From Chloroflexota bacterium (GTDB lineage: Bacteria; Chloroflexota; Dehalococcoidia; SZUA-161; SpSt-899), in contig JABMQN010000003.1 of assembly GCA_013203045.1 (NCBI GenBank), positions 18,073 to 82,072 on the forward strand: a DNA stretch of 64,000 bases. Direction: 5' to 3'. Under the pieces are notes generated by a model. The model did no database searches, was not told the origin of the DNA, and saw nothing but the letters and a program-made list of their open reading frames with translations. This document shows, one piece after another, positions 23,715 through 43,471 of the stretch; the stretch's first letter is position 1, and every line of letters starts with the position of its first letter. The position numbers and the translations under genes were made by a program.

Positions 23715-25934
23715 ATGGGTTCTTATGAAATCAAAAAAACCGCCTGCCAGTTCTGCGCTGCACTCTGCGGAGTTCTGGTTCATGTTGAAGACGGCAAGGT
23801 TGTCAAGATCGAAGGAAACAAGGATCACTTTTTGAGCCACGGTTTTACCTGCGAGCGGCCCGGCATCGCTCCCAAATGGCTGTATCATCCGGATCAGATC
23901 ATGTATCCCCTCAAGCGCATGGGCAAACGCGGTGAAGGCAAATGGCAACAGATTAGTTGGGATGATGCCATGACTGAGATCGGGCCAAAACTTCTCGAAC
24001 TCAAAGATAAATATGGGCCGGAAATGCTGGGATTCTTTGAGGGAACCTATCGAGGTAACGACTACTGGCCACGGGGCCGCTTTGCTACCCTTTTTGGCAA
24101 TCCGCACAACATTTTCGCTCCCGGAATAATCTGCGGCATAAATGATATGGGTATCAACATGGCGGTCACTGGGGACGTAACTACCTGGTCCACTGACCTA
24201 TCTAACTCAGGCTGCGCTGTCTTCTGGGGTAGCAATCCAGCCCAATCGGAGATGAGAAGCTGGACCCACCTTCTCCGAATGAAGAAGGAGAGGGATATCA
24301 AGATAATAGCGATAGATCCCCGGCGGACTAAAACCACCGATATCGCCGATATCTGGCTCCAGTTGCGGCCTGGCACCGATACTGCACTGGCCATGGCCTG
24401 GCTCAACGTCATTATCAATGAAGAACTCTATAATAAAGATTTCGTCCAGAATTGGACCGTAGGGTTCGATAAGCTCAAAGAACGGGTTCAAGAATATCCG
24501 CCAGAGAAAGTAGCTGAAATAACCGGTGTTCCCGCAGAGAAGATTGTCGAAGCTGCACGGACGTATGCCACCCACGGTCCATCAGCCATGCCATATGGTG
24601 TAGCCATCGATCAGTTAGGTTTGAATGGCACCCGTACAGAACACGCAAAAGTAATTATGCGCGCCATTTGCGGCTACCTGGGGGAATTTGGGGGACATCT
24701 CATAACCCGGCCGGGATCGACCAATAACGGCGGAAAATTCATTACTGAAGCTGAGCTTTCCATGATGGAGCGTCTCCCCATGGAAGCGCGTGAAAAAATG
24801 ATGGGTTTCGATGTTTGTCGGTTGGTTTCACTCAAGGGCTGGAGTATGATGGCCCCGCATATCGAACGGGTATACGGTGTTCCTGCACCGGTGACGGTAC
24901 AGATACAGGCTCATACCACCATGCTCTGGCGTTCCATCCTCTCTGGTGAACCCTACCCGATCAAGTCACTCATCTGCTGGGGCTCAAATCCGATGGCCTG
25001 GGGTGGAAACACCAAGTTGGTATACGAGGCGCTCAAGAGCGACAACCTTGATCTTTCTGTAGTTCAAGAACTGGTCATGACACCCACGGCTCAACTGGCA
25101 GATTATGTTTTCCCAGCTACCAGCTGGATGGAACGGGACCTGTGCACCAACATGATGGATTTTGCCAGTTTGCTATGGGCTGGTGAGAAGGCCATCGAGC
25201 CTCTGGGAGAGCGCCGGGACATCTATGAGTTCTTCCGCGCGTTAGCTTTGAGTGTGGGACAGGATGAATACTGGCCATGGAAAACCACAGAAGAAGTGAG
25301 CGATTATCGATTGCAGTTGTGCGGACTGACCTTCCGGGATTGTGTGGATCGAATGATAGTCTTTCCGGATACATTCGATGTAAAACCATATGAAAAGACT
25401 GGATTCCCCACACCTTCAGGTAAGGTTGAGCTTTATTCCACCATCCTCGAAAAACTGGACTATGATCCCATGCCTTTCTACGAGGAACCCCCTGAGAGTC
25501 CACTCAGGCTCCCCGAAGTGGCTAAAGAGTATCCGCTTATTTTAAATACTGGCGGCAATTATCGACCCATGTATCACTCCGAGTTCATGCAGTGGGGAAT
25601 CGGTTCCCGTGAGAAGCATCCTGACCCTCTGATGGATATTCATCCCGATACAGCTCGGGATCTGGGAATAAATGATGGCGATTGGGCCTACATCGAAACT
25701 CGCCGTGGCAAGATTAAACAGAAGGCCAGATATAACGATGGAATCTTGCCCAATGTAGTAAATTGCCAGGCGAGCTGGTGGTTCCCTGAAAAGCCGGCCA
25801 ACGAACCGGAACTCAGTGGTGTATGGGAGTCCAATGCTAATGTGCTCACCCTCGACGATCCCGAGTTCTGCGACGAACTGTCTGGTGGTTGGTGCAACCG
25901 TGCTCTCCTTTGCAAGGTTTACAAGGCAAACTAG
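23715..25934 (+). CDS. molybdopterin/tungstopterin oxidoreductase, MopB superfamily, cytoplasmic (acetylene-hydratase/formate-dehydrogenase-like), copy 1
   Basis: N-terminal 4Fe-4S motif CQFCAALCGV...C, ...YPLKRMGKRGEGKWQQISWDDAMTEI..., and C-terminal molydop-binding beta-barrel (WAYIETRRGKI). No twin-arginine signal. ATG 23715 with GGGAGG RBS. Confidence 0.85.
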   Translation: MGSYEIKKTACQFCAALCGVLVHVEDGKVVKIEGNKDHFLSHGFTCERPGIAPKWLYHPDQIMYPLKRMGKRGEGKWQQISWDDAMTEIGPKLLELKDKYGPEMLGFFEGTYRGNDYWPRGRFATLFGNPHNIFAPGIICGINDMGINMAVTGDVTTWSTDLSNSGCAVFWGSNPAQSEMRSWTHLLRMKKERDIKIIAIDPRRTKTTDIADIWLQLRPGTDTALAMAWLNVIINEELYNKDFVQNWTVGFDKLKERVQEYPPEKVAEITGVPAEKIVEAARTYATHGPSAMPYGVAIDQLGLNGTRTEHAKVIMRAICGYLGEFGGHLITRPGSTNNGGKFITEAELSMMERLPMEAREKMMGFDVCRLVSLKGWSMMAPHIERVYGVPAPVTVQIQAHTTMLWRSILSGEPYPIKSLICWGSNPMAWGGNTKLVYEALKSDNLDLSVVQELVMTPTAQLADYVFPATSWMERDLCTNMMDFASLLWAGEKAIEPLGERRDIYEFFRALALSVGQDEYWPWKTTEEVSDYRLQLCGLTFRDCVDRMIVFPDTFDVKPYEKTGFPTPSGKVELYSTILEKLDYDPMPFYEEPPESPLRLPEVAKEYPLILNTGGNYRPMYHSEFMQWGIGSREKHPDPLMDIHPDTARDLGINDGDWAYIETRRGKIKQKARYNDGILPNVVNCQASWWFPEKPANEPELSGVWESNANVLTLDDPEFCDELSGGWCNRALLCKVYKAN

Positions 25935-26007
25935 CATTAAATTGATACGTCATCGCGAGAACAAGATATCGCCGGTGGTAGTATGCGCGAGAGCAAAAAC
26001 CCTTTTG

Positions 26008-26088
26008 TGTCATTCCCGTCCTTCCGATGCCGGAAAGAGGAATCTAGATGGGTGGGGATGTAGATTCCGGGTCAAGCCCGGAATGACA
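26008..26088. repeat. MITE-like element with TGTCATTCC / GGAATGACA termini and internal TCTAGATTCC hairpin
   Basis: Read directly. Terminus family shared with 7471 and 8482. Confidence 0.65.
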
Positions 26089-26100
26089 CGGTATTAAGTC

Positions 26101-28023
26101 ATGACAGATTTCTCAGCACTTTTCCAGCCTGGCAACATCGGCTCATTGCGACTCGAAAACCGAATCGTAATGCCTGCCATGGCCTCGCAACTCCCCGAAC
26201 CGGATGGCAGGCTATCGGAGAGACTGCTCGATTACTATCGAGCTCGTGCTGAAGGTGGCGTGGGCCTCATCATTCCTGCATATGCCGGTGTTAGTGCTGA
26301 CGCTCCCCTTATGTTCAACATGGCTCTGAGTGATGATAGCTGGGTTGAGGATTGGTCCCGGCTGATCGATGTAATCCATAGTTATGGTGTGAAAGTTGGC
26401 GTTCAACTTATGCACGTGGGTATGCTGTATCTGTTCGCCGGGTTTGTCCCTCAAGGTATCACCATGAAAGTGCCATCGGAAATGCCCTGGCTTAGTGATG
26501 ATATTCCTTATCAGGTACTCAATCATGAGGATATCGAACGCTATATCGATGATTTCGGCCAAACGTCACGCCGGGCTAAGGAGGCCGGAGCGGACCTGAT
26601 TGAAATCCATTCCTGCCACGGTTCTCTGGCGGGAATGTTTATGTCGCCGATCACCAACCGTCGAACGGATGATTATGGGGGTTCTGCCGAAAATCGGGTC
26701 CGTTTTCCTCGTAGGATTGTTGAGCGTATTAGAAAGGAAGTGGGATCGTATTTGCCCATTTTAATTCGAATTAATGGCAGCGATGACCTCGATGGTGGCA
26801 TCACAATAGAGGAAGCTGCACAGCATGCAGTTATGCTCGAATCCGCTGGTGCAGATGCTATCAGCGTTTCCCGAGGGATTGAGTTCTGGGCAACGACAAC
26901 TATTCCCTCTTATTTGTATCCAAATGGTTCGATGTTGTCATTAGTAGATGGAATCAAGAAAGCGGTATTAGTGCCGGTGATGGCGGCTGGAAAGATCACA
27001 CCGGAGCTGGCACAAGAGGTCGTCGCGGATGGGAGAGCTGACTTTGTAGCTCTGGGTCGACCCTTACTTGCTGATCCCGAACTCCCGAACAAATTACGCC
27101 AAGGGCGAGCCGATGAAATCCGGCGCTGTATCTACTGCATGAATTGCTTAAGTTTTGAAGCTGCTATGGGGGGCGGTTCATGTTCGGTTAATCCTTACCT
27201 GAATTTGGAATCCCAATATCCACCGAAGGCTGCTAGTCCAGTTAAAGAAGTGATGATCGTTGGTGGTGGATTGGCTGGTTTACAAACTGCTTTGATATTG
27301 GTTGAACGAGGGCATCACGTCACCATTTATGAAAAGGACGCTGAACTTGGGGGACAATGGAATATTGCTAGAGCGGTAAACGATAAGGAGGATTTCGTCA
27401 ATCTTCTACATTTTTTAAAGCAGTCTTTGGATAAATACGAAGTGGAAATATATATGGGTGTTGAGGTCACCAAAGCAAAAGTGATTGAAGCCAAACCTGA
27501 TGCTGTAGTGATTGCTACGGGAGCAGTACCGGCCGTGCTCGATGTTCCCGGTTTTCAAAGAAAAAATGTGGTTCAGGCACTGGATGTAATCAGTGGGAAG
27601 ATTAAGCCTGAGGGCAGGATAGTAGTGTTCGGGGGACGGTATACTGCGCTGGAGACTGCTCTTATGTTAGCGGAACAAAGTAAAGATGTGAGCGTGGTTA
27701 CTCGTGCTGCTTTCGGATTAACGCTAGAGAGAGTGACTTTCCGGACATTGTTGAAGAGACTTATTGATCTCAGAGTTCCCATGTATCCGAACACGGCTGT
27801 TCTCGAAATCGTGGAGAAACATGTGGTCATGCGTTACAATGGGGAGGTTCTAGAATTGTCGGCCGACACGGTGGTGTTAGCAGTGGGAATGCGATCCGAA
27901 AACAGGCTGGCTCAAGAACTTGAAGGTATTGTACCGGAAGTCTATGCCGTTGGTGACTGCGTAAAGCCTCGGAACGCAGCTTCGGTGGCTTATCAGGCAG
28001 CACAAGTGGCTGCTAAGATTTAG
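26101..28023 (+). CDS. OYE-family NADH:flavin oxidoreductase fused to FAD/NAD(P)-binding domain (2,4-dienoyl-CoA reductase/enoate reductase-like)
   Basis: N-terminal TIM-barrel OYE domain (RIVMPAMA..., HSCHGSL), Cys cluster CIYCMNCL, then GxGxxG dinucleotide-binding domains (MIVGGGLAGL). Confidence 0.85.
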   Translation: MTDFSALFQPGNIGSLRLENRIVMPAMASQLPEPDGRLSERLLDYYRARAEGGVGLIIPAYAGVSADAPLMFNMALSDDSWVEDWSRLIDVIHSYGVKVGVQLMHVGMLYLFAGFVPQGITMKVPSEMPWLSDDIPYQVLNHEDIERYIDDFGQTSRRAKEAGADLIEIHSCHGSLAGMFMSPITNRRTDDYGGSAENRVRFPRRIVERIRKEVGSYLPILIRINGSDDLDGGITIEEAAQHAVMLESAGADAISVSRGIEFWATTTIPSYLYPNGSMLSLVDGIKKAVLVPVMAAGKITPELAQEVVADGRADFVALGRPLLADPELPNKLRQGRADEIRRCIYCMNCLSFEAAMGGGSCSVNPYLNLESQYPPKAASPVKEVMIVGGGLAGLQTALILVERGHHVTIYEKDAELGGQWNIARAVNDKEDFVNLLHFLKQSLDKYEVEIYMGVEVTKAKVIEAKPDAVVIATGAVPAVLDVPGFQRKNVVQALDVISGKIKPEGRIVVFGGRYTALETALMLAEQSKDVSVVTRAAFGLTLERVTFRTLLKRLIDLRVPMYPNTAVLEIVEKHVVMRYNGEVLELSADTVVLAVGMRSENRLAQELEGIVPEVYAVGDCVKPRNAASVAYQAAQVAAKI

Positions 28024-28030
28024 ACCGGTA

Positions 28031-28108: not shown

Positions 28109-28678
28109 ATGCAACTTGCCTTCTACTTTGATCAAACCCGATGTACCGGCTGTTGGACGTGTGTGATCGCCTGCAAGGATTGGCATGATGTCCCGGCGGG
28201 GCCTGCTAGCTGGATAAGAATTTCAGAAATCCAGCGTGGCAAATACCCAGATCTGTTCATGGCCTTTATGGCTACTCCGTGCTACCATTGTGCCGATCCA
28301 TATTGCATACCGGCCTGTCCTCATGATGCCATAACCAAGAGGGCTGAGGATGGTATCGTGATAGTGGATCAGGAGGTTTGTGTGGGGAAAGATGAGTGTG
28401 GTATGTGTATTGATTCTTGTCCGTATGAGGCACCGCAGTTCGGTGATGAGCAGAACGCTAAAATGCAGAAGTGCAATTTCTGTATTGATCGATGGGAAGA
28501 GGGAAAACCTCCGATTTGTGTGGCTGCCTGCCCCACCCGAGCGCTCGATGCAGGTCCCATAGAAGAGATGGAAGCTAAATACGGAAAGGCACAGGAAGCT
28601 GAGGGTTTTCAGTATGATTCAACCCTGAAGCCATCGATAATTGTGAAGTCGAAACCGGTGATTTCATTAATTTACTAA
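28109..28678 (+). CDS. 4Fe-4S dicluster/DmsB-like iron-sulfur electron-transfer subunit
   Basis: Four Cys clusters (CTGCWTCVIACK, CYHCADPYCIPACP, CVGKDECGMCIDSCP, CNFCIDR...CVAACP). Confidence 0.85.
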   Translation: MQLAFYFDQTRCTGCWTCVIACKDWHDVPAGPASWIRISEIQRGKYPDLFMAFMATPCYHCADPYCIPACPHDAITKRAEDGIVIVDQEVCVGKDECGMCIDSCPYEAPQFGDEQNAKMQKCNFCIDRWEEGKPPICVAACPTRALDAGPIEEMEAKYGKAQEAEGFQYDSTLKPSIIVKSKPVISLIY

Positions 28679-28694: not shown

Positions 28695-29147
28695 ATGACT
28701 GAACAACAAAACCAGTTTTCCCCGATATGCCAGCTTGGCTATGTAGTGAGTGATATTCAGAAGACATGTGAGTATTATCAAAGGATATTTGGCATGGAGT
28801 TTTCAGAAGTAATCGATGTCGATATGGATGGTGCCATCCTGCGCGGCAAGCCGGTTAATACCAAGATAAAGGTTGCTTTTGCCAAGTCGGGCGACCTCGA
28901 ACTTGAACTGATTCAACCAGTTGAAGGCGAGAATCTGTACACCGAATTTCTTGCTAGCAATGGTGATGGCATTCATCATATTGCCTTTCCAGTGGATGAT
29001 ATGGATGCCATGAAAGCGGAATTTGCCAAGAAAGGTCTGGAGCCGCTGTTCTACAAAGACATGGGTGTAATGGAATTCGCGTATTTTGATACCACTGAGT
29101 TTGGTGGAACGATGACCGAATTTCACTATTGGAAAATGGAAACGTAG
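28695..29147 (+). CDS. VOC (glyoxalase/bleomycin-resistance/dioxygenase) family protein
   Basis: Paired beta-alpha-beta-beta-beta modules with metal-ligand positions (LGYVV...HHIAF...E). Paralog of 43007..43471. Confidence 0.7.
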   Translation: MTEQQNQFSPICQLGYVVSDIQKTCEYYQRIFGMEFSEVIDVDMDGAILRGKPVNTKIKVAFAKSGDLELELIQPVEGENLYTEFLASNGDGIHHIAFPVDDMDAMKAEFAKKGLEPLFYKDMGVMEFAYFDTTEFGGTMTEFHYWKMET

Positions 29148-29225
29148 CGCGAGGCTTCAGCCTCGCACCCAAGCGATCCTGAAGAAGTAGGATGGGTGCA
29201 GCGAAGCATAACCCATCACAACTGA
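29141..29225. repeat. REP-like composite repeat (GAAACGTAGCGCGAGGCTTCAGCCTCGC ... GCGATCCTGAAG ...) overlapping the stop codon of the VOC gene
   Basis: Same motif as 7481-7570 and 16706-16735. Confidence 0.65.
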
Positions 29226-29305: not shown

Positions 29306-31504
29306 ATGAGTAAAAGCAGCACGGAAAACGTTATTACCACTACTTGTGCCGCACACTGTGGCGGTGGTTGTCCTCTGAAAGCCCACGTTAAAGATGGTGT
29401 CATCACCAGGATCGAAGCGGACGATGATAGCGATAATACCCAGGTTCGGGCATGCTTGCGCGGGCGTTCTTGGAGGCAAAGGATATATCACCCCGATCGA
29501 CTCAAGCAACCAATGAAGCGTGTGGGGCCTCGAGGGAGCGGCCAGTTCGAACCGATCTCGTGGGATGAGGCTTTAGATACCATCGCCAGCGAGATCAAAC
29601 GGATCATCGATACTCACGGACCTGCTTCCATTGTTCACTGGGTGTCCGGTGGAGATCAGGGAATGCTGCATGACACCTGGCGGCGCATGAGTCGGCTTTT
29701 CTGCATGATGGAAGGAGGAGGTTACACTCGACCCTGGGGTTTGCATTCCTACGAGGGCGGTATATTCGCCGAACTTACCTGCTTTGGAATGGGCTGGACG
29801 GCTCATACCCGTGATGATTTTCTCAATTCCAAACTGATCATTATGTGGGGATGGGATCCGGCGACCACCATTCAGGATAGCAATACCGCATGGTATCTGG
29901 CTCAGGCCAAAGAAGCCGGAGTCAAGATCATATCGGTTGACCCAAGATTCACCGTCTCAACTGCTACATTCGCCAACCACTGGATACCCATCCGGCCAGG
30001 CTCGGATACGGCAATGCTGGTTGCTATGGCAAATGTGATGGTAACCGAAAACCTCCAGGACCAGGCATTCTTAGATAAGTTCACTGTTGGATTTGATGCG
30101 TTTAAAGATTACATTTTGGGCAATGAAGATGGTGTAGCTAAAACCCCGGAATGGGCATCCGAAATCACCAGAATCCCGGCGGATACCATCCGAAAACTAG
30201 CTCGGGAATATGCCACCACTAAACCGGCTGCACTCATTACCGGAATCGGGCCTGGACGAACGGCTTATGGTGAGCAATACCATCGAGCAGCTATCACACT
30301 GGCAGCGATGACCGGAAATATCGGCAAACCCGGCGGATCGTGTGGTGGCAAGTCATGGGGACCGCATGCTCTGGGAAGAATGGGATCGGGTCCCAAGATA
30401 CCGCCGAACCCAGTAGACCAGACCATTCCCAATCCGGAAGGCAAGCTTCCCAATCGTAATTATTATATTTATGGTTATGGTATCATCAATGTCTTTAGGC
30501 TCACCGATGCCATTATCAAGGGGAAATCCGGCGGCTACTCGGCCGACTACAAACTGCTATGGATAACCAATGCTAACCCTCTTAACCAATGGCCTAACAC
30601 CAACAAAACCATTGAGGCCTTTAACAAACTGGATTTGGTGGTTACTGAAGAGCAGTTCATGACACCAACGGCTCAGTACGCCGATATTGTGCTCCCATCG
30701 ACTACTTTCTTCGAAAGGGCCGATATTACCATGGGAGCCGCAGTGCCAGTCTTCTATGCCTATCGGAACAAAATCATTGAACCTATAGACGAAGCCAGAA
30801 CGCCGATGGATGTGGCCACTGAACTGGCTGAAAGGCTCAACTTAGAAGGTTTTAATGATAAAACTGACGAAGAATGGCTCGATGCGATACTCGAAAAAAG
30901 CACCGTCCCCGATCATGAAGCGATTAAAAAAGACGGTATCTATAAGATTGATCTTCCTGAACCCAATGTACCCTTCCGTGCACAGATTGAGGATCCGGAA
31001 AACAATCCCTTTTATACCCCTTCCGGAAAGATAGAAATCTACTCTCAGACCATCGCTGATATGAATGTGCCTGATTGCCCTCCGATTCCCAAATATATCG
31101 AACCGTGGGAGAGCCCGAACGATCCACTGGCAAAGAAATACCCTTTGCAGCTCATTACCACCCACACTCGAAGACGGGCACATACCCAATTTGATAATGT
31201 CCCCTGGTTACGAGAATTAGACCCGCATTCAATAAAGATAAATGTAATTGATGCTGAAGCCAGGGGGATCAAGGATGGTGATTTGGTTAGGGTTTTTAAT
31301 GATCGTGGTACAATGATTATTCCGGTAAAACTTATTGAAACGATCATTCCAGGGGTGGTCGATCTTCCTCAGGGTGCCTGGTTCGATCCTGATGAGAATG
31401 GAATTGATCGCGGTGGTTGTGCCAATGTACTTTCTATTGATAGACCTTCCCCCGGCGGGGCTTTACCTTCCAATACCGGTCTGGTTCAGATCGAAAAAGC
31501 CTGA
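29306..31504 (+). CDS. molybdopterin/tungstopterin oxidoreductase, MopB superfamily, cytoplasmic, copy 2
   Basis: N-terminal TTTCAAHCGGGCP...DGVITRIEADDD 4Fe-4S motif, ...YHPDRLKQPMKRVGPRGSGQFEPISWDEALDTIA..., and C-terminal molydop-binding domain. ATG 29306 with AAGGAG RBS. No Tat signal. Confidence 0.85.
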   Translation: MSKSSTENVITTTCAAHCGGGCPLKAHVKDGVITRIEADDDSDNTQVRACLRGRSWRQRIYHPDRLKQPMKRVGPRGSGQFEPISWDEALDTIASEIKRIIDTHGPASIVHWVSGGDQGMLHDTWRRMSRLFCMMEGGGYTRPWGLHSYEGGIFAELTCFGMGWTAHTRDDFLNSKLIIMWGWDPATTIQDSNTAWYLAQAKEAGVKIISVDPRFTVSTATFANHWIPIRPGSDTAMLVAMANVMVTENLQDQAFLDKFTVGFDAFKDYILGNEDGVAKTPEWASEITRIPADTIRKLAREYATTKPAALITGIGPGRTAYGEQYHRAAITLAAMTGNIGKPGGSCGGKSWGPHALGRMGSGPKIPPNPVDQTIPNPEGKLPNRNYYIYGYGIINVFRLTDAIIKGKSGGYSADYKLLWITNANPLNQWPNTNKTIEAFNKLDLVVTEEQFMTPTAQYADIVLPSTTFFERADITMGAAVPVFYAYRNKIIEPIDEARTPMDVATELAERLNLEGFNDKTDEEWLDAILEKSTVPDHEAIKKDGIYKIDLPEPNVPFRAQIEDPENNPFYTPSGKIEIYSQTIADMNVPDCPPIPKYIEPWESPNDPLAKKYPLQLITTHTRRRAHTQFDNVPWLRELDPHSIKINVIDAEARGIKDGDLVRVFNDRGTMIIPVKLIETIIPGVVDLPQGAWFDPDENGIDRGGCANVLSIDRPSPGGALPSNTGLVQIEKA

Positions 31505-31539
31505 CATTTTTGCGGCTAAACTCACCGTATGGAGATAGT

Positions 31540-31992
31540 ATGGAGTTATGTTACTATGAAGATTACGAGGTTGGACAAATACTCGTTTCAGACACGTATA
31601 CGATAGATAAAACCGAACTAGTGGAATTCTCAAAGAAATGGGATCCACAACTATATCACATTGATGAAGAAGCAGCTATAGAGTCGATTTACGGGGGTTT
31701 GACGGCACCATCTTCGCTGATAATGGCGGTAGCAAGCCGACTTGGAAACACGATTCTACCAAAATGTGCTGCGATGGGTGCTCTGGGGATGACGGATCAA
31801 GAGTTCCCTAATCCCATGAGACCGGGTGACCACATCACCCTTAAATCAACAGTAACTCAGAAGAGACGCTCGAAAACGAAATTAGATCGGGGGATCGTTC
31901 ATTTTGCTGTCCAACTTGTCAATCATGATGATGAACCGATTACCACGTATCGCACCAAGATAATGGTGGCCAAGCGGAATAATTCGGCATAA
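31540..31992 (+). CDS. MaoC-like (R)-hydratase hot-dog domain protein, subunit 1
   Basis: MELCYYEDYEVGQ...FSKKWDPQLYHIDEEAA is the MaoC dehydratase N-terminus. The track ORF starts 30 nt earlier at TTG, so the start is uncertain. Confidence 0.75.
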   Translation: MELCYYEDYEVGQILVSDTYTIDKTELVEFSKKWDPQLYHIDEEAAIESIYGGLTAPSSLIMAVASRLGNTILPKCAAMGALGMTDQEFPNPMRPGDHITLKSTVTQKRRSKTKLDRGIVHFAVQLVNHDDEPITTYRTKIMVAKRNNSA

Positions 31993-31993
31993 C

Positions 31994-32452
31994 GTGGAAG
32001 TTAAATTTAAAATGCTTTACTTCGAGGACTTCGAGTTAAACCAAACGTTTGATACTGGCAGTTACATTGTGGATAAGGATGAAGCAATCGAGTTTGCTAA
32101 GAAATGGGATCCTCAGATATATCACATCGATGAAGAGGCGGCAAAGAAGAGCATTTATGGTGGTTTGACTGTGCCGTCATCGTATATGATCGCCGTTAGT
32201 GATTTGTTGAATACCAGTTATTTCCCTGAAGCGGCAGTTATTGCTGCTCTGGGAAGGCAAGATATGGAGTTTCCTAATCCTGCCCGGCCAGGTGATCGGC
32301 TTACGTGTTTAAATCAAACAATCGAGAGACGTGAGTCGAAGACCAAACCGGATCGGGGGATACTGCGTAATCGTATTGAGCTAAAAAACCAAAATGATGA
32401 AATTGTCCTGAGTTACGTGGTCACGACCATGATATCCAAACGACTTGTGTAA
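31994..32452 (+). CDS. MaoC-like hydratase hot-dog domain protein, subunit 2 (paralog)
   Basis: MLYFEDFELNQ...FAKKWDPQIYHIDEEAA, about 45% identical to the upstream paralog. Start may be GTG 31994 or ATG 32012. Confidence 0.75.
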   Translation: MEVKFKMLYFEDFELNQTFDTGSYIVDKDEAIEFAKKWDPQIYHIDEEAAKKSIYGGLTVPSSYMIAVSDLLNTSYFPEAAVIAALGRQDMEFPNPARPGDRLTCLNQTIERRESKTKPDRGILRNRIELKNQNDEIVLSYVVTTMISKRLV

Positions 32453-32473
32453 AGATACACTAAGGAGGTCAAA

Positions 32474-33280
32474 ATGCAGAACGAAAATATGATCAGCAAA
32501 ATTCGAGAAGGCGGAGTCGCACAGGGCGCTGAGCACGCTGAAGAACGTAAACGATTGCTAACGGAAGATCTTGGTTATCGGACCGCTGAAAAAGCTGAAT
32601 ATGCTCTAATTGCGAGTTGTTTCAATCCACTGCTTGAACCTCAGGATATGAAAGCCTTTGCCAAACTGTTGGAGTATTATAAAGTCGACTATACCCTTCT
32701 TCCCAAAGAATATTGCTGTGGTGATCCTTTCTATTTGCACTATGTTAATGACAAGCATGAAGGTGATCTTGAGCAAGCAGATGAACTTAGCAAAGAGTTT
32801 TTTGAGGAAAATCTGAAACAGGCGAGGAACGCTGATGCAACCAAAATTCTTGCCTATTGTGCCGGCTGTGACATGGCTTTCCAACGGTTCAGTGATAGTG
32901 TTCCCGAAGAGATAATGTGGCATCCCACGTTACTGGCTCAACTGTTCCAGGGAGGTAAGCTTGAGCTTGAGGCCGATTTCTACCCCGGTTGTCATCGGTA
33001 TCGTCAGGAGCTCAACAACTCTCTGCCGGACCTCGATGCAGTTCGCACTGTCCTAAGTAAAATAGAAGGGCTCGAACTAACTGAGTTCGGCAGCGAATTG
33101 TGTTGCATGAAGCCGGATGAGTTGGAGTCACTGGTCCCATTAATCAAACACAAGACGATCATAACACCATGCTCCGGTTGTACCCTCTTTCTCAGAAAAG
33201 CTCTCGCAGAGCAGGGCGATTATCGGGTATTCATGCTGTCCGAAGTGGTCTGGGCTGCCGTTGACGGTCACCCTCTATAA
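32474..33280 (+). CDS. HdrB-like protein with two CCG (Cys-rich) domains
   Basis: CCG motifs EYCCGDPF and ELCCMKPD, plus additional Cys (AYCAGC, PCSGC). ATG with AAGGAGG RBS. Confidence 0.7.
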   Translation: MQNENMISKIREGGVAQGAEHAEERKRLLTEDLGYRTAEKAEYALIASCFNPLLEPQDMKAFAKLLEYYKVDYTLLPKEYCCGDPFYLHYVNDKHEGDLEQADELSKEFFEENLKQARNADATKILAYCAGCDMAFQRFSDSVPEEIMWHPTLLAQLFQGGKLELEADFYPGCHRYRQELNNSLPDLDAVRTVLSKIEGLELTEFGSELCCMKPDELESLVPLIKHKTIITPCSGCTLFLRKALAEQGDYRVFMLSEVVWAAVDGHPL

Positions 33281-33302
33281 TCTTCATTAAAAGGATTAGT
33301 CA

Positions 33303-33719: not shown

Positions 33720-34160
33720 ATGAAACCACAAGGTGTCAATCGGATAGTTATAGCGGTAAAGGACCTTGAAAAGAGTAAAGAATTCTACTCGAAATTACTC
33801 GGAGCTACATTTCATGATGCAAACGGTACCGGTGAACCTATGGGCATAAATGTAGCCATCAGTTGGGATGCTGGAATAGAATTAATCGCACCCATACCTG
33901 GGAAGAACGTCTTTCTTGAGCAACTCATCGAACAGAATGGAGAGGGAATTCAGGCTGTGGTATTCGAGGTGGATGATGCGGATGAAGCTCGCGATATGGC
34001 TGAAAGTGCTGAAATGAATGTTCTGGTGCCGGTTGATTACAGCCAGGAAGAGATTGACCAGCATTTGGAGGGGATGTTCACAAAATACAAGGAATACGTG
34101 CTGGATTCAACGGCCAAGTGTGGCTACACCGTAATGCTGGGACAAATCGAGCCAAAATAA
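33720..34160 (+). CDS. VOC/glyoxalase-fold protein
   Basis: VNRIVIAVKDLEKSKEFYSKLLG ... GIQAVVFEVDD, a two-module VOC pattern. Confidence 0.6.
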   Translation: MKPQGVNRIVIAVKDLEKSKEFYSKLLGATFHDANGTGEPMGINVAISWDAGIELIAPIPGKNVFLEQLIEQNGEGIQAVVFEVDDADEARDMAESAEMNVLVPVDYSQEEIDQHLEGMFTKYKEYVLDSTAKCGYTVMLGQIEPK

Positions 34161-34183
34161 AAGCAGAATGGAGGAATCAGATT

Positions 34184-34519
34184 ATGATCAAAACAATCGC
34201 ACTGATTCACCGGAAAGAAGGGATTTCGAGAGAGGAATTTGCCAAACATTATGAAGAGTCACATGCACCATTGGCAGTGAAACTCTTCCCACAGATCAAG
34301 AAATATATACGAAATCATATTGTAGAAATTCCCGGAATGGAAGGCCCGGAATTTGACTGTATCAGTGAATTCTGGTTCGACAATGTTGAAGATGCTCTGG
34401 CGGTAGCCGAGATCGCTCAATCAGAAGCTGGACAAGCTATTCGAGATGACGAAGACAAATTCATGAATAGCAGCAAGACGATCTCGTTAATGGTGGATGA
34501 AAGAGTTTCGGATATTTAG
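34184..34519 (+). CDS. EthD-domain protein (dimeric alpha/beta-barrel)
   Basis: MIKTIALIHRKEGISREEFAKHYEESHAPL... is the typical EthD N-terminus. ATG 34184 with GGAGG RBS. Confidence 0.7.
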   Translation: MIKTIALIHRKEGISREEFAKHYEESHAPLAVKLFPQIKKYIRNHIVEIPGMEGPEFDCISEFWFDNVEDALAVAEIAQSEAGQAIRDDEDKFMNSSKTISLMVDERVSDI

Positions 34520-34524
34520 GATTA

Positions 34525-34620
34525 GTTCGTACTTCGACAGGCTCAGAACGAACGTTTCTCCCGATTACAATTTTCTGCTTCCGCTCGTCCTGAGTTTATC
34601 GAAGGGTGAGCGTGGAACAT
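34525..34620. repeat. degenerate member of the GTCATTCTGAGC repeat family between the two EthD paralogs
   Basis: Contains GCTCAGAACGAACG and CGTCCTGAGTTTATCGAAGGGTGAGCG resembling the termini/internal motifs at 7471 and 8482. Confidence 0.4.
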
Positions 34621-34633
34621 ATGTGAGATAGAT

Positions 34634-34966
34634 ATGATCAAGACAATTGCATTGCTTAAAAGAAAGCCGGGCCTTTCACGCGAGGAATTTGTTGAGCACT
34701 ATGAAGATGTCCATGTACCGCTAATAATGAAGCATTCGACTGGGCTCAATAAATATGTGCGGAATCACATACTTGCCTTAGCCGAAAGTGAAGAAGCGGA
34801 GTATGACTGTATCACCGAACTCTGGTATGAGGATATGGAAGCTTTCAAGTCCTCCGTAAACGTGTGGGGAACGGAGGCTGGGAAGGTGATCATAAATGAC
34901 GAGAACAGGTTTATAGACAGGAGTAAGATCGTATTTTTCATGGTGGATGAAAGGGTTTCCGATTGA
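34634..34966 (+). CDS. EthD-domain protein (paralog)
   Basis: MIKTIALLKRKPGLSREEFVEHYEDVHVPL, about 45% identical to 34184..34519. Confidence 0.7.
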   Translation: MIKTIALLKRKPGLSREEFVEHYEDVHVPLIMKHSTGLNKYVRNHILALAESEEAEYDCITELWYEDMEAFKSSVNVWGTEAGKVIINDENRFIDRSKIVFFMVDERVSD

Positions 34967-36561: not shown

Positions 36562-37116
36562 TTATCGGTCCAGCTTGAATTCCCATTGGCAGCAGATATC
36601 GGAATAGTCGGTCCTGGGCGGTACTTTCAGAGGAGTGACTTCGATATCAGGATTGAAGAAGTGGGAAATAGTATCAAAGGTCCAGGGTGTTATTTCCTGG
36701 CACTGATGCTTTTCTCTCCCTTTACCTTCCCTCTCCAGTGCGAATAGAGTAGGGCACGTGTATTTTGTCAGTATGGCATGGTCGCGGTTCTTAATATCGA
36801 TGGTGTATTCGCAAAGTGAAAGCCACGGATTGACTTGCATGTACTTCATCACGGCGGCTACGTCATCACCGTGAATGTTCAGCACATCGGTCATTGCCTT
36901 TAATTCAAAGGACTGGGCCTTTTCCCATACTTTAACGTCGCAATCATAGGCCTCATCCTTGCCCCATTTCTCCATCGCGGCGAGATACCAGAAGCCATCA
37001 ATCCTCAGAATATACTCCCGATATGCCTTAAGCAGCTTAAGAAGTACATCCTTGCTGAAACGGGCATGATCGAATTCCGGATCGAATTCACCACTATAGT
37101 CGATTAGTTCAGACAA
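36562..37116 (-). CDS. conserved hypothetical protein with Cys motif ...CPTL...C...CCQWEFKL (tandem paralog A)
   Basis: 184 aa, about 55% identical to the adjacent gene. No recognisable catalytic motif. Confidence 0.6.
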   Translation of the reverse strand: MSELIDYSGEFDPEFDHARFSKDVLLKLLKAYREYILRIDGFWYLAAMEKWGKDEAYDCDVKVWEKAQSFELKAMTDVLNIHGDDVAAVMKYMQVNPWLSLCEYTIDIKNRDHAILTKYTCPTLFALEREGKGREKHQCQEITPWTFDTISHFFNPDIEVTPLKVPPRTDYSDICCQWEFKLDR

Positions 37117-37128
37117 ATTGTTCTCTCT

Positions 37129-37677
37129 TTAAAGCTTGAATTCCCATTGGCAACATATATCAGAGTAGTCGGTTCTGGGGGGCACCTTAAGTGGAGTGAC
37201 CTTGATTTGTGGATTGAAGAAATGGGCCATCATATGCATGAATCTTGAGTCGATTTCCCGACACTGCCGTTCCTCTCGTCCCTGGCCTTCTTTTTCAAGA
37301 GCGAGCAGGGTTGGACAGGTGATGTGGGTCAAAATCGCCCGGTTATTGTTGATAACTTCCAGAGTATATTCCGTAATAGCGATCCAGGGGCATGCTTGCA
37401 TGTATTTGGCAAATGCTGCAACATCATTGCCTTTGATGTTGAGTGTGCTGCTGATTGCCTGGAGTTCAAATAGCTTGGCTTTTTCCCAAACCTTGATGTC
37501 GCACTCCACAGCCTCATCGTTGCCCCACTTCTCCATAACGGTCAGGTACCAGAATGCATCGATCTTACGGATGTATTCGGAATAAGTTTCGAGAAGCTTG
37601 AGAAGCGTTTCTTTTGCAAATTTATCATGGCTGAATTCGGGATCGAATTCGCCACTGTAGTCGATTAGTTCTACCAT
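37129..37677 (-). CDS. conserved hypothetical protein (tandem paralog B of 36562..37116)
   Basis: MVELIDYSGEFDPEF... matches MSELIDYSGEFDPEF of paralog A. ATG 37677 chosen over the track extension to avoid overlap with the nitroreductase gene. Confidence 0.6.
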   Translation of the reverse strand: MVELIDYSGEFDPEFSHDKFAKETLLKLLETYSEYIRKIDAFWYLTVMEKWGNDEAVECDIKVWEKAKLFELQAISSTLNIKGNDVAAFAKYMQACPWIAITEYTLEVINNNRAILTHITCPTLLALEKEGQGREERQCREIDSRFMHMMAHFFNPQIKVTPLKVPPRTDYSDICCQWEFKL

Positions 37678-37684
37678 ATTCCCC

Positions 37685-38353
37685 TTAGTCGAAACCCAGC
37701 CAAGTGGTGATATCTTCAAGAGATTCGCGCGTACTCTGAAGTCTATTGGCCGGGAAATCCGGGTCCGGATAACCTATAGCAATTGACATCACTATTCGTT
37801 GAGAATCCGGGATTTTACAGACTTGTCTAGCGACTTCAGGAAAGAGTACTCCCTGACCGGCGATGCATGTTCCAAGCCCGTATCCCAAAGCAGCCATACA
37901 AATCGTCTGAGTAAGGCATCCGTGGTCGAATTGAGTAGGGGATTCATCCAGGGAATTGGAAGCGGTCAATATGATAGCTGCAGGCGCATCGTAAAACCGG
38001 AATCCTCTCTGAACCCAAGCCGTCCGTTTTTCTTTATCTTTCCGGTCGATACCCATATGTCCGTATAGCTGGGCTGCCAGTTTCATATGGCGCTCCTTGT
38101 ATACACCGGCGTGAAGATGCATATGGACTTCCGGATTGAAGGGTTCTCTGGCATTTAGTTTCTGGATATTGAGTCGGCGGATTTCATCCAGTGCTTTTCC
38201 AATGACAACCGTGATTTCCCAAGGTTGACCATTTTCAGCCGAAGGGGATCGGATTCCAAGTTCGAGCACTTTTTGCAGAATTTCCTTTGGAATTGGGTCG
38301 GGCTTGAACCCCCTTATGCTTTTGCGTTCTCTTATTCCTTCCAAAATATCCAT
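37685..38353 (-). CDS. nitroreductase-family FMN oxidoreductase
   Basis: RKSIRGFKPDPIPKE...SPSAENGQPWE is the nitroreductase signature. Confidence 0.8.
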   Translation of the reverse strand: MDILEGIRERKSIRGFKPDPIPKEILQKVLELGIRSPSAENGQPWEITVVIGKALDEIRRLNIQKLNAREPFNPEVHMHLHAGVYKERHMKLAAQLYGHMGIDRKDKEKRTAWVQRGFRFYDAPAAIILTASNSLDESPTQFDHGCLTQTICMAALGYGLGTCIAGQGVLFPEVARQVCKIPDSQRIVMSIAIGYPDPDFPANRLQSTRESLEDITTWLGFD

Positions 38354-39829: not shown

Positions 39830-39922
39830 ATATTTATATCCTTACACATGTTCATTGCAATATTACTGTCTATGTTCATGATCTAATAGGAGATTGTCCA
39901 GGTCACCTACAGACGGGGTGAC

Positions 39923-40759: not shown

Positions 40760-40775
40760 ATTTCAGTTTTCAATA

Positions 40776-42983
40776 CTAATCTTTATAAACCTTGCAGAGG
40801 AGCCCTCTGAAATAGCTGTTCCCGGCATAGTCGGAGAATCCAGGTTCGTCTGGGACGATAGCATCGATGTTCGATTCCCACACTCCGAATAAACTCGGTT
40901 CGGCTTCCTCTTTCTCAGGGAACCACCAGTAGCCGTCAGCGTGGACAACCTGTGGGGGCATTCCTTCCAATAGCTTCACCTTCTGTCTCACTTTCCCCAT
41001 TGGCGTTTCGACCCATGCCCAGTCTCCCTCGCTGATACCCAGTTCCTCAGCCTTTTCGGGACTGATCTCCATCACTGGGTCGGGATAACGTTTCCTTATC
41101 TTTTCAAGCTGTCTATGAGAGGAATGATGGAATTCCTTTACCCTCGAACCGCTAATCAGGATCAACGGGTATTCTTTCGCTAAGTCCGGTGTAGATATGG
41201 GGCTCCACGGCGGTTCCTCATAGCCTGCCAGTGGATCGTAGCCCAGTTGCTGTAATACAGTTGGCACCAACTCAACTTTGCCTGAAAAAGTAGCGAATCC
41301 GGTTTTTTCATACTTTTTGTATTCTTTAACCGGGAAGTAACCGGGAGTCTGAGCAAGTTCGCGGAGTGTGACACCGGCGGGTGCCAGCAGTTTATTCAGC
41401 CAACCTTCAAGTGTATCCGGCCAATTTTTTTCTTGTCCCAGCCGCTTACCCAGATCAGCCCATAACTGGTAATCGTCTTTTCGTTCGTACATGGGCTCGA
41501 CGATAGCCTCGCGTCCGAATTCAGAGCCTGTCATTCCCCACAGGTTAGTGATCGTGGGATGCTCCATGGCATCGGTGGCCGGCAGTACATAATCAGCGAG
41601 AGCCCCGGTTGGTGTGAGGAAATGATCCATGGATACATGCAACTCGAGATTATCACTCTTGAAAGCTTCGTATGCATGCCTGGAATCACCGATGGAGCAA
41701 AGCGTATTCGTACCCTGATCGAACACCGCCTTAATTGGGTAGGGCTTCTCAGTCAGGATTGCTTCCCAGCACGCATGAGGGGATGGATAGATGAAGTATT
41801 GCGCCGCTCCCCATCCTTTGGGATAGACACGCTTCATCGCTTCGTGGTAAAGGACTAAAGCCTTGACTGACCCTATCGATTGTTGATCGGCACTGACGGT
41901 ATCCCGGGTTCGCAGCGGGTGATTGATTTGACTGTCCCAATTCATCTCCTCCAGAAAAGCGGTATAATCCGGCGGAGTGCTGAAGACCTGGCCCCCTTCT
42001 CGATCCAGATTACCGGTTACGGCTCGAAGCCAGCATTTTCCCATCACCCCACTTAATCCAGCGCGATTGCCCAGGTGCGTATTGGCAACACCCCAGGTCA
42101 GGGCAGCCGCAGAAGCGTTGGCATACATTCGGGCAGCCTCGATGATTTTATCGGCGGGTACCCAGGTGATTTCCGAGACTTTCTCTGGAGTATACTGCTG
42201 AACGAGAGTCTTGAGTTCGTCAAATCCCAGGCACCACTTCTCGACGAACTCCTTATCATAAATACCTTCATTAATGATCACGTTCAACATGCCTAAAGCC
42301 AAAGCCCCATCCGTGCCCGGGCGAAGTTGCAGCCAGAGGTCGGCCGCTTTAGCGCAGGTGGTCGGCCTGGGGTCCACCACGATGATCTTCATCCCTTGAC
42401 TCTGCGAGTACTTGTATCCCTCCCACAGCCTCGGCTGAGATTCTGATGGGTTTGCTCCCCAGATAATCAGGACACCGGTTTTTTCAGGATTTAAAAATGT
42501 GGCCCAAGCTGCAATCGTGTCATAGCCATACATAGCGCATTCGACCGGGAATTCCGCTTCACCACAGTTCTTGCCGAGATGAAAGAAATTAGGCGTTCCC
42601 CAGAGATTGCACCATTTCCAGGCCGCCGGATCACCCGGCCCATGAGGGGAACCTCCGAGGACCAGTACAGCTTCCGGCCCATATCGATCGCGGATGCTCT
42701 CCAGTTTCGCTGCGATCTCATCCATCGCCTGTTCCCAGGAAATCCGTTCCCACTTTGCCTCTCCGCGTGCGCCTACCCTTTTCAGCGGGTAATTCATCCT
42801 TTTTGGATGGTCGTGGTATTCCACGCCGTTTACACCGCGGATGCAAAGGTGGCCCAGAACACTTTCACTGTCCGGTTGCACCTTAACCACTCTGTCATTG
42901 TCAATATGGGCAACGATATGACAGAAGGTGCCACACACCGGGCAAGTGCCTTTTCGAGTAGTTGTATTAGATTCTGTTACCAT
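40776..42983 (-). CDS. molybdopterin/tungstopterin oxidoreductase, MopB superfamily, cytoplasmic, copy 3
   Basis: CPVCGTFCHI...C 4Fe-4S motif, ...YPLKRVGARGEAKWERISWEQAMDEIAAKL..., and C-terminal barrel (WAWVETPMGKV). No Tat signal. Confidence 0.85.
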   Translation of the reverse strand: MVTESNTTTRKGTCPVCGTFCHIVAHIDNDRVVKVQPDSESVLGHLCIRGVNGVEYHDHPKRMNYPLKRVGARGEAKWERISWEQAMDEIAAKLESIRDRYGPEAVLVLGGSPHGPGDPAAWKWCNLWGTPNFFHLGKNCGEAEFPVECAMYGYDTIAAWATFLNPEKTGVLIIWGANPSESQPRLWEGYKYSQSQGMKIIVVDPRPTTCAKAADLWLQLRPGTDGALALGMLNVIINEGIYDKEFVEKWCLGFDELKTLVQQYTPEKVSEITWVPADKIIEAARMYANASAAALTWGVANTHLGNRAGLSGVMGKCWLRAVTGNLDREGGQVFSTPPDYTAFLEEMNWDSQINHPLRTRDTVSADQQSIGSVKALVLYHEAMKRVYPKGWGAAQYFIYPSPHACWEAILTEKPYPIKAVFDQGTNTLCSIGDSRHAYEAFKSDNLELHVSMDHFLTPTGALADYVLPATDAMEHPTITNLWGMTGSEFGREAIVEPMYERKDDYQLWADLGKRLGQEKNWPDTLEGWLNKLLAPAGVTLRELAQTPGYFPVKEYKKYEKTGFATFSGKVELVPTVLQQLGYDPLAGYEEPPWSPISTPDLAKEYPLILISGSRVKEFHHSSHRQLEKIRKRYPDPVMEISPEKAEELGISEGDWAWVETPMGKVRQKVKLLEGMPPQVVHADGYWWFPEKEEAEPSLFGVWESNIDAIVPDEPGFSDYAGNSYFRGLLCKVYKD

Positions 42984-43006
42984 GTTTCGTCTCTCCTCTT
43001 CCCTAT

Positions 43007-43471
43007 CTAGACTGGTTTGATTTCAAAAAGCTCAGTCATCACGCCACCGACTTGATCAGTGTTCACGTACGCCCAGGATATACCAGCCTCAGGGTAACTG
43101 TGCTGCCACACCGGCTCGATACCTTCCTTGGCCCATTCCGCCAATATCTCATCGAGGTTGTTGACCGTGAAGCGTACATGCTGTATTCCCTCGCCTCTTT
43201 CTCTCAGGAATTCAGAATGAATCGATTCACCCTCAAGCACCTCAATCAGTTCAATCTCAATCGGCCCCGACTGTGCGAAAGCCATCTTCAATCGAACATC
43301 GGTGGACTTCCCTCGATAGAGGCACCCTTCAAGGCTAACCTCCGAAATGTTGAAGGGCCCCCAGCCAAGCACCTTTTCATAGTATTCCACGGTTTTCTCG
43401 ACATCCTTGACGATGATTCCTATCTGTTCGACGGGGGGCAGACTGATAGAGCTTTTTCTATCTGTTGACAT
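43007..43471 (-). CDS. VOC/glyoxalase-fold protein (paralog of 28695..29147)
   Basis: IGIIVKDVEKTVEYYEKVLGW...IQHVRF. Adjacent to MopB copy 3, just as 28695 is adjacent to MopB copy 2. Confidence 0.7.
   Translation of the reverse strand: MSTDRKSSISLPPVEQIGIIVKDVEKTVEYYEKVLGWGPFNISEVSLEGCLYRGKSTDVRLKMAFAQSGPIEIELIEVLEGESIHSEFLRERGEGIQHVRFTVNNLDEILAEWAKEGIEPVWQHSYPEAGISWAYVNTDQVGGVMTELFEIKPV

Follow-up and report, generated by a model that had tools for sequence, protein, structure and literature searches.

A VOC-fold protein gene recurs beside two kinds of cytoplasmic MopB genes in Chloroflexota and Desulfobacterota

Enzymes carrying a molybdenum or tungsten bis-pyranopterin guanine dinucleotide cofactor (Mo/W-bisPGD; the MopB family) perform most O2-independent hydroxylations and oxygen-atom transfers in anaerobes, and the partner subunits known to us are ferredoxins, cytochromes, membrane anchors, and TorD-type chaperones. 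We analyzed a 64,000-nt stretch of contig JABMQN010000003.1 (hereafter the window, to which positions refer) from a Chloroflexota/Dehalococcoidia metagenome-assembled genome (MAG). A catabolic island at about 17–55 kb of the window holds three MopB genes and, next to two of them, genes for proteins of the vicinal oxygen chelate (VOC) fold. This VOC–MopB pairing is the subject of the present report, and the genes concerned are as follows; loci of other genomes are cited by number (L001 and so on).

23715–25934, plus strand: MopB1, a predicted cytoplasmic acetylene hydratase (AH)-like Mo/W-bisPGD protein without a VOC partner (domains, match to AH structure 2e7z)
28109–28678, plus strand: Fer, a DmsB-like ferredoxin with 4x[4Fe-4S] (16 Cys in four groups), the predicted electron-transfer partner of MopB2
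28695–29147, plus strand: VOC1, a VOC protein resembling methylmalonyl-CoA epimerase (MMCE; Glyoxalase_4 match)
29306–31504, plus strand: MopB2, a predicted cytoplasmic DmsA-like Mo-bisPGD protein with a Ser ligand and a Cx3Cx3C FS0 motif
40776–42983, minus strand: MopB3, a predicted cytoplasmic AH-like Mo/W-bisPGD protein of the VOC-linked clade
43007–43471, minus strand: VOC2, an MMCE-like VOC protein, 23 nt upstream of MopB3

AH of Pelobacter/Syntrophotalea acetylenica (2e7z) resembles MopB1 and MopB3 in its N-terminal Cx2Cx3C...C [4Fe-4S] motif, in Cys141, and in having neither a twin-arginine translocation (Tat) leader nor a dedicated ferredoxin subunit. It differs in that its Asp13 is Ala or Gly in the two proteins and that Ile14, Ile113, Ile142, and Trp179 are not conserved. 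AH has no VOC neighbor, whereas MopB3 has one that looks obligatory, though it is absent at L084. Cldh and Eadh of Gordonibacter/Eggerthella are leaderless AH-related enzymes with a bis-molybdopterin guanine dinucleotide cofactor that act on organic oxygenated substrates (PMC7028382, PMC12771579), and the characterized Gordonibacter-type dehydroxylases have 4Fe-4S proteins, MFS transporters, and LuxR regulators encoded alongside them (PMC12771579). Cldh and Eadh are in this respect like about 30 of the 77 AH-like loci outside the MopB3 type in our sample, which have a small ferredoxin (4Fe-4S) gene downstream instead of a VOC gene. Compared by description, MopB1 and MopB3 are unlike them, with no 4Fe-4S protein, MFS transporter, or LuxR regulator adjacent, and MopB3 has a VOC in place of such neighbors.

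MopB2 shares with the dimethyl sulfoxide (DMSO)/selenate reductases DmsAB and YnfEFG the FS0 Cx3Cx3C motif, the Ser Mo ligand, and a DmsB-like 4x[4Fe-4S] partner; unlike these, it has no Tat signal and no DmsC anchor, and a VOC gene stands between Fer and MopB2. Phenylacetyl-CoA:acceptor oxidoreductase (PadBCD), pyrogallol transhydroxylase, and S25DH/EBDH also belong to the DMSO-reductase family and oxidize organic carbon (a CoA ester in the case of PadBCD) with water as the oxygen source. MopB2 recalls the PadBCD type in that MaoC hydratases, a thioesterase, and CoA transferases are encoded near it, but the partners of those enzymes are membrane-bound or periplasmic, and none is a VOC. On the VOC side, MMCE and the structure 3gm5 have the same single-domain, two-module VOC fold with a metal site in the same positions. 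MMCE differs in sequence (21–24% identity), in its ligand set (His/Gln/His/Glu, against Gln/Glu/His/Glu in the VOCs, so that the first ligand is Gln instead of His and the second Glu instead of Gln), and in context, because the VOCs have no mutase or carboxylase nearby and are linked to MopB genes. In the anaerobic steroid and cyclohexanol pathways, the Mo-dependent enone hydratase/dehydrogenases AtcABC and MhyADH add water-derived oxygen in the course of short-chain dehydrogenase/reductase (SDR) and flavin desaturase steps on alicyclic ketones. They are functional analogs only, with a gene context similar to that found here; they belong to the xanthine-oxidase family, not to MopB, and have no VOC partner.

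The VOC–MopB pairing recurs in other genomes. A profile built from VOC2, VOC1, and 20 homologs, run against a single genome for each GTDB species, yielded 80 VOC loci. Among the 23 closest VOC relatives (at least 48% identity), 18 lie directly upstream of a MopB3- or MopB2-type gene on the same strand, whereas none of the 57 more distant VOCs (35–50% identity; Myxococcota, Spirochaetes, and others) has an adjacent MopB gene. Fisher's p of about 1e-14 was calculated for 19/23 versus 0/57, and the recount of 18/23 leaves it in the same order of magnitude. Most of the linked loci belong to Dehalococcoidia, joined by one MAG of Thermodesulfobacteriota and one of Desulfonema limicola (DYJH01000075), and they show the following gene orders.

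VOC, MopB3-type: L003, L008, L010, L012, L014
VOC, Fer, MopB2-type: L004, L006, L007
Fer, VOC, MopB2-type: L015
Fer, VOC, VOC, MopB2: L013, L017, L018, L020
Fer, fused VOC-VOC, MopB2: L021, L023, L024
Fer, VOC, MopB2, VOC, MopB2: L016, L019

The same was seen when MopB genes were the starting point. Of 80 loci recovered from metagenomes with an AH-like profile, three are of the MopB3 type; a VOC gene stands upstream in two of these (L082, 67% identical to MopB3, and L083, 85%) and in none of the 77 others, MopB1-type genes included. Among ten MopB2-type homologs (57–76% identity), picked solely for their long contigs, five have a VOC gene in the operon (L162, L163, L165, L167, L172), compared with 0/77 for the AH-like loci (p = 7e-6). 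The evidence for linkage is strong: the adjacency of MopB2 and MopB3 to VOC genes goes beyond chance and is conserved across Chloroflexota and Desulfobacterota. MopB1 takes no part in it. This gene lies 2.7 kb from VOC1 with two genes between, and no VOC was found at the loci of its relatives L001, L086, L096, L098, L099, and L101, of which L001 alone exceeds 70% identity.

An earlier note on this DNA had proposed a recurring, undescribed MopB+VOC unit in which every MopB has a VOC, MopB1 being tied to VOC1 by operon position. The proposal is borne out for two of the three copies, whose adjacency is conserved in other genomes, and is not supported for MopB1. Our literature search for any pairing of a VOC/glyoxalase protein with a molybdopterin enzyme found none, only general papers on AH-like genes and catechol dehydroxylases; on this basis, the VOC–MopB cassette is previously undescribed. 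A plasmid search for a cultured host returned distant MMCE genes only and no cassette.

Coupling of the two genes is often tight. The VOC stop and the MopB start overlap by 4–11 nt in L162, L165, L167, and L172, and the 23-nt VOC2–MopB3 spacer of the window carries a GAGGAG Shine-Dalgarno sequence. A bare two-gene VOC–MopB3 cassette is found in L010, L012, and L014 with mostly unrelated flanks (Mrp antiporter, M24 peptidase, PGK, PlsY), and in L165 a module of SnoaL, VOC, MopB2, aldehyde ferredoxin oxidoreductase (AOR), and CCG genes stands amid translation genes. The linked VOCs come together as a single group in neighbor-joining (NJ) trees, and this group divides into two clades: members of the VOC1-type clade are invariably located immediately upstream of a MopB2-type gene, and those of the VOC2-type clade have MopB3-type or Fer/MopB2-type genes as partners. 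On the MopB tree, 8/8 members of the MopB3 clade are VOC-linked, against 0/7 in the MopB1 clade. Three loci (L016, L019, L167) carry two cassettes in one operon, each MopB paralog with its own VOC and a single Fer shared, and there the VOC orthology and the MopB orthology are congruent. The p-distances of VOCs and of their partner MopBs are correlated (Mantel r = 0.81, n = 20; 0/2000 permutations reach it), which indicates stable linkage through diversification, not protein contact.

Certain other genes accompany the cassette. Old Yellow Enzyme (OYE), SDR, alcohol dehydrogenase (ADH), AOR, SnoaL, and MaoC genes recur around it: an ADH adjoins VOC–MopB3 in L008, L012 (0.4 kb upstream, a Zn-ADH), L082, and L083, with an AsnC regulator in L008 and L083; SDR and OYE genes accompany Fer–VOC–MopB2, the OYE genes in L015, L016, L017, L020, and L163; and a nitroreductase-type flavoprotein goes with MopB3 in the window, in L008, and in L012, where it is encoded directly 3' of MopB3. 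The order DUF1847–VOC–MopB3 of the window is also seen in L008 and L169/L170 and not in other MopB3-type loci, MopB2–MaoC–MaoC also in L166, and a CCG gene after VOC–MopB2–AOR in L165. Pooled Pfam counts of the neighbors reflect mostly lineage-specific synteny (M20 peptidase, GNAT, methyltransferase, CutA1), not a pathway.

The three MopB proteins all contain PF04879, PF00384, and PF01568. Their FS0 cysteine motif begins at residue 11–14, which leaves no room for a Tat leader, so the absence of Tat signals claimed in the earlier note is confirmed. That note had also described them as one paralogous set with a common N-terminal motif like that of AH or formate dehydrogenase, and this does not fit: MopB1 and MopB3 share 40% identity with each other and only 29% with MopB2, which differs further in its Cx3Cx3C motif and its Ser ligand. 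Judged by sequence, the three fall into two subfamilies, AH-like (MopB1, MopB3) and DmsA/TorA-like (MopB2).

MopB1 and MopB3 match 2e7z over the full length (36% identity, E = 6e-135, and 35% identity, E = 9e-119, respectively). We aligned 116 MopB proteins, 89 AH-like and 27 MopB2-type. The equivalent of the metal ligand Cys141 is kept in MopB1, MopB3, and all 88 AH-like sequences of the alignment, whereas the position of the catalytic Asp13 of AH is Ala in MopB1 and Gly in MopB3 and throughout the MopB3 clade; Asp is found there in only one of the 116 proteins (L100). Of the hydrophobic ring of AH (Ile14, Ile113, Ile142, Trp179, Trp293, Trp472), MopB3 retains Trp293 and Trp472 only and MopB1 none. 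The closest relatives of MopB1 are annotated as Dehalococcoidia, and its start at 23715 is supported by orthologs of 738–739 aa. In MopB3's version of the cassette, there is no ferredoxin gene. Apart from the cassette, the Asp13-bearing L100 protein (about 4977–7169 of metagenome contig VSSQ01000245.1) is the nearest neighbor of AH in the NJ tree and is a candidate true acetylene hydratase from a metagenome.

For MopB2, the best PDB matches are trimethylamine N-oxide (TMAO) and DMSO reductases (TMAOR and DMSOR; E = 1e-92 for DMSOR), and pyrogallol transhydroxylase (4v4c) matches more weakly (E = 3e-58). The FS0 motif reads C14-x3-C18-x3-C22...C49, and a Ser aligns with Ser147 of DMSOR; Tyr114 and Trp116 of DMSOR are not conserved. 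The start at 29306 is supported by a strong AAGGAG Shine-Dalgarno sequence and by homologs of 727–737 aa, and an optional 38-aa extension from 29192 contains no twin-arginine motif and no hydrophobic stretch. MopB2 scores 666.1 bits against TIGR02166 (dmsA_ynfE; cut-off 777.7). The DmsB-like partner that the earlier note had assigned to MopB2 is indeed there: Fer, adjoining VOC/MopB2 genes in most related loci, reaches 172 bits against TIGR02951, a family similarity below the cut-off of 214. None of the MopB, Fer, OYE, or VOC proteins of the window attains its NCBIfam curated cut-off. As a separate observation, the VOC-less MopB2-type gene of L171 lies in an operon (1752–8223) with an AMP-ligase, a B12-dependent acyl-CoA mutase (large and small subunits), a ChsH2-like protein, an SCP-x-type thiolase, and NIPSNAP; this gene content is a hint that the substrates of MopB2-type enzymes may include CoA esters with branched or tertiary carbons.

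VOC1 and VOC2 both match Glyoxalase_4 and are 39% identical, in agreement with their earlier description as paralogous VOC-fold genes. An NCBI protein labeled "Chloroflexi bacterium" matches VOC2 at 100% identity. With 52.4 bits against TIGR03081 (methylmalonyl-CoA epimerase; cut-off 114.95), the VOCs are set apart from ordinary MMCEs, as the earlier note required. The AlphaFold2 (AF2) model of VOC2 (pLDDT 92.3) has as its best structural match 3gm5 (31% identity, TM 0.82), an uncharacterised "putative MMCE", followed by true MMCEs, and the model and the conserved residues show the two-module fold with its metal site. The MMCE metal-ligand positions are occupied by Q16, E74, H98, and E147, all four invariant among linked VOCs; in alignment A1, Q16 is nearly invariant and the other three are invariant. 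E44, conserved in 88% of linked VOCs, we take tentatively to be a possible equivalent of the second catalytic Glu of MMCE. Because the metal-site residues are invariant in linked VOCs and the core is shared by unlinked relatives, the VOC is most likely a working metal-dependent proton-transfer enzyme recruited to the MopBs and not a degenerate scaffold. Around the distant unlinked VOCs, where ORF calling was crude (high-GC genomes), the neighbors include a luciferase-like monooxygenase, MBL/alkylsulfatase, sulfotransferase, and Coq4, from which no ancestral chemistry can be inferred.

The VOC family comprises 246 clusters at 50% identity (E<=1e-30), many of them tandem VOC-VOC fusions. Examples of about 300–360 aa are encoded at L021 7917–8933, L023 3677–4684, and L024 7932–8942, and occur among the representatives P0361–P0508. 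Some loci have two separate VOC genes, VOC2-type then VOC1-type, before a single MopB2, as if a double cassette had lost one MopB and both VOCs had fused afterwards. It should be added that a role in arsenic metabolism (ArsM-like methyltransferase plus ArsI-like VOC) was considered and dropped, since the VOCs lack the vicinal Cys pair of ArsI; VOC2 holds a single, non-conserved Cys.

We put the probability at roughly one half that VOC and MopB constitute a conserved functional cassette, in which a predicted cytoplasmic Mo/W-bis-pyranopterin enzyme works with a dedicated, MMCE-like, metal-dependent VOC. By gene content, the window has two versions of this putative cassette: VOC2 with the AH-like MopB3 and no ferredoxin, and Fer plus VOC1 with the DmsA-like MopB2. 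The two proteins would act on one substrate, in consecutive steps or as a complex. The Mo/W-bisPGD site would add or remove water-derived oxygen, in MopB2 by a hydroxylation or dehydrogenation that may be redox-coupled via Fer (OYE or CCG proteins may also take part in the electron transfer), and in MopB3 possibly by a non-redox hydration or by a dehydroxylation with a different donor. The divalent metal of the VOC would chelate carbonyl or thioester oxygens and shift a proton, so that the protein may be an epimerase, a tautomerase, or a 1,2-carbonyl-shift isomerase that supplies the right isomer to the Mo/W site or resolves its product. The sequence of hydroxylation or hydration followed by VOC-catalyzed isomerization or ring cleavage, which the earlier note had suggested, is compatible with the data. 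VOC ring cleavage normally requires O2. The neighboring SDRs, Zn-ADH, OYE, AOR, NTF2/SnoaL, MaoC, and CoA transferases or ligases weakly suggest that the substrates may be oxygenated alicyclic, terpenoid/steroid-like, or aromatic acids or ketones, partly as CoA esters, degraded anaerobically.

Several points weigh against this interpretation. No VOC gene lies within 5–6 kb of the MopB3-type gene of L084 (73% identity) or of five of the ten MopB2-type genes (L164, L166, L168, L171, L173), and such MopBs are evidently able to work without an adjacent VOC. Conversely, unlinked VOCs from Myxococcota and others share the same core residues amid heterogeneous neighbor genes, which means that the VOC chemistry is not intrinsically MopB-dependent. 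No VOC–MopB fusion was found among the 150 best family representatives, the longest of which has 435 aa. The Mantel r is inflated because linked genes share descent, and the substrate proposal is weakened by the several cassettes that stand among housekeeping genes. We also consider, tentatively and with less confidence, a stronger version of the cassette proposal, in which the VOC would be a true catalytic subunit of a heteromeric Mo/W-bisPGD enzyme, a new class that would have arisen on two MopB scaffolds and would pass a metal-chelated enolate or enediolate of the VOC site to or from the pterin site.

The VOC might instead be a non-catalytic accessory of MopB, that is, a structural third subunit, a protein for substrate binding or delivery, or a maturation helper. 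Bleomycin-binding VOCs are a model for substrate binding and delivery by this fold. Such a role would suit the tight, often translational coupling with VOC upstream, the accompaniment of each MopB paralog by one VOC paralog, the service of one VOC clade to two unrelated MopB lineages, and the fact that neither a TorD/NarJ-like chaperone gene nor a DmsC/NrfD-like anchor gene turned up among the window ORFs scanned. We nevertheless regard it as unlikely, because linked VOCs show no variation at the four metal-ligand positions or at other core residues, with the same core in unlinked ones, and because many close MopB2-type genes have no VOC; moreover, we know of no VOC-fold chaperone and no VOC-fold MopB subunit.

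Another possibility concerns MopB3 only. It could be a cytoplasmic reductase of the catechol/phenol dehydroxylase type, the metal of the VOC binding a catechol-like substrate or tautomerizing it for oxygen-atom abstraction. Vicinal oxygen chelation is characteristic of VOC enzymes and suits this idea, the appeal of which is that AH has the cytoplasmic dehydroxylases as its sister group. The nitroreductase-type flavoprotein accompanying MopB3 in three loci is a potential electron donor, and the AH clade includes cytoplasmic, leaderless catechol dehydroxylases (PMC7028382, PMC12771579). Yet the 4Fe-4S proteins, MFS transporters, and LuxR regulators of Gordonibacter-type enzymes (PMC12771579) are absent beside MopB3, neither paper reports a VOC/glyoxalase partner, and the VOC goes by type with MMCE and not with the extradiol dioxygenases, so that we consider this explanation rather improbable.

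Many linked loci come from related Dehalococcoidia with common flanks (M20 peptidase, GNAT, methyltransferase, CutA1), and VOC and MopB could simply travel together in such genomes by inherited synteny, with no direct functional link. This is very improbable given the variety of phyla and surroundings, the involvement of two unrelated MopB lineages, and the several gene orders (VOC–MopB, Fer–VOC–MopB, VOC–Fer–MopB, MopB–Fer–VOC); the coding regions also overlap, and the cassette is duplicated as a unit. Finally, the plain annotation, with MopB1 and MopB3 as acetylene hydratases, MopB2/Fer as a DMSO or S/N-oxide reductase, and the VOCs as MMCEs that merely reside in the same island, is scarcely credible: it follows the best PDB matches (AH over the full length for MopB1 and MopB3, DMSOR/TMAOR for MopB2), the best-named structural relative of the VOCs, and the plentiful CoA-ester enzymes of the island, but Asp13 of AH is replaced and its hydrophobic ring mostly not conserved, all NCBIfam scores are below cut-off (52 versus 115 for the VOC), MopB2 lacks Tyr114/Trp116 of DMSOR, a Tat leader, and a membrane anchor, neither methylmalonyl-CoA mutase nor propionyl-CoA carboxylase was found among the window ORFs, and co-residence would not predict such adjacency.

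Leaving these alternatives and returning to the proposed cassette, we describe its setting in the window. The genes listed in the earlier note are all present in the ORF and domain check, including the OYE-FAD reductase between MopB1 and MopB2; a third VOC gene (VOC3) had been missed. The further features are as follows.

23641–23669, plus strand: promoter-like site TTGACA-17-TAGAAT with TG, preceding MopB1 (11/12 consensus positions; a consensus match alone)
26101–28023, plus strand: OYE (FMN) + FAD/NAD(P) + FeS flavoenzyme, BaiCD / 2,4-dienoyl-CoA-reductase type by domain matches
29149–29166, plus strand: GC-rich hairpin GCGAGGC-TTCA-GCCTCGC with a perfect 7-bp stem and no T-run, read from the sequence
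31510–33698, plus strand: two MaoC hydratase subunits, a CCG-domain FeS protein, and a 4HBT thioesterase, the operon 3' of MopB2
33720–34160, plus strand: VOC3, 146 aa, of a different VOC clade, between the 4HBT thioesterase and two EthD genes
43491–44147, minus strand: DUF1847 Cys-rich protein, first gene of the VOC2–MopB3 operon
47296–49494: Zn-dependent alcohol dehydrogenase (minus strand) and AsnC/Lrp regulator (plus strand), recurrent VOC–MopB3 neighbors

The plus-strand order is MopB1, the OYE/FAD/FeS flavoenzyme, Fer, VOC1, MopB2, two MaoC genes, the CCG protein, and the 4HBT thioesterase, followed by VOC3, two EthD proteins, and two SDRs. The minus-strand genes run DUF1847, VOC2, MopB3, an SDR, an ADP-forming CoA ligase, a nitroreductase-family protein, and two DUF6125 proteins. 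More SDRs, the Zn-ADH, an LEH/SnoaL protein, a xylose-isomerase-like TIM barrel, and the AsnC regulator are also nearby in the island, as are a phytoene-desaturase-like flavoprotein and an AOR, and the island is rich in CoA-ester enzymes. The OYE flavoenzyme scores 473 bits against the BaiCD family (cut-off 825). VOC3 is 29–33% identical to VOC1 and VOC2 and forms a clade with L027 6124, which is not MopB-linked. The hairpin follows directly on the VOC1 stop codon, in the VOC1–MopB2 spacer, which at 158 nt is unusually long; in relatives, the same two genes overlap. No Moco riboswitch or other RNA element was found associated with the MopB genes.

Small genes occur as tandem pairs, namely two DUF6125 (36562–37719, minus strand), two EthD (34118–34966, plus strand), and two MaoC genes (31510–32452, plus strand), and this pairing suggests heterodimeric proteins. 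DUF6125 is also found near the cassette in L008, L009, and L027. An ECF cobalt/nickel uptake system of the CbiM/CbiQ/CbiO type is encoded at 12331–14942 (plus strand), a few kb away from the island. It could provide the VOC metal, since Co2+ or Ni2+ is the usual metal of MMCE-like VOC enzymes. The island is flanked by a tyrosine integrase (15269–16180, plus strand), a DDE transposase (56575–57726, minus strand), and a large serine recombinase (58862–60997, plus strand), and this bracketing suggests that the island may be mobile or of recent acquisition. A c-di-GMP-I riboswitch (RF01051; 53844–53929, plus strand; 57.7 bits, E = 1e-8) is located directly 5' of the gene for a 601-aa four-PAS protein (53929–55734) with no recognizable output domain. 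A bacterial eRF1-like protein (baeRF family 10 / VLRF1-like; 22283–23488, plus strand) is encoded in a low-GC stretch (GC 0.41, 22–24 kb), between an acyl-CoA dehydrogenase gene, which is followed by a terminator-like hairpin (22223–22250), and the promoter-like site of MopB1.

If two separate MopB lineages have indeed recruited a VOC-fold partner, the Mo/W-bisPGD family would gain a new building block. The pairing would also delimit a set of enzymes that takes in hundreds of MopB2-type clusters and, on the VOC side, at least 246 clusters at 50% identity. The cassette hypothesis is directly testable: the cassette comprises two to three genes, and one MAG that carries it is assigned to Desulfonema limicola, a species in culture. 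Dehalococcoidia and Desulfobacterota dominate marine and aquifer sediments, where their carbon sources are poorly known. If a heteromeric VOC–MopB enzyme exists, it would allow abundant uncultured subsurface Dehalococcoidia and sulfate reducers to hydroxylate, dehydroxylate, or hydrate alicyclic or phenolic carbon that is otherwise unreactive, independently of O2.

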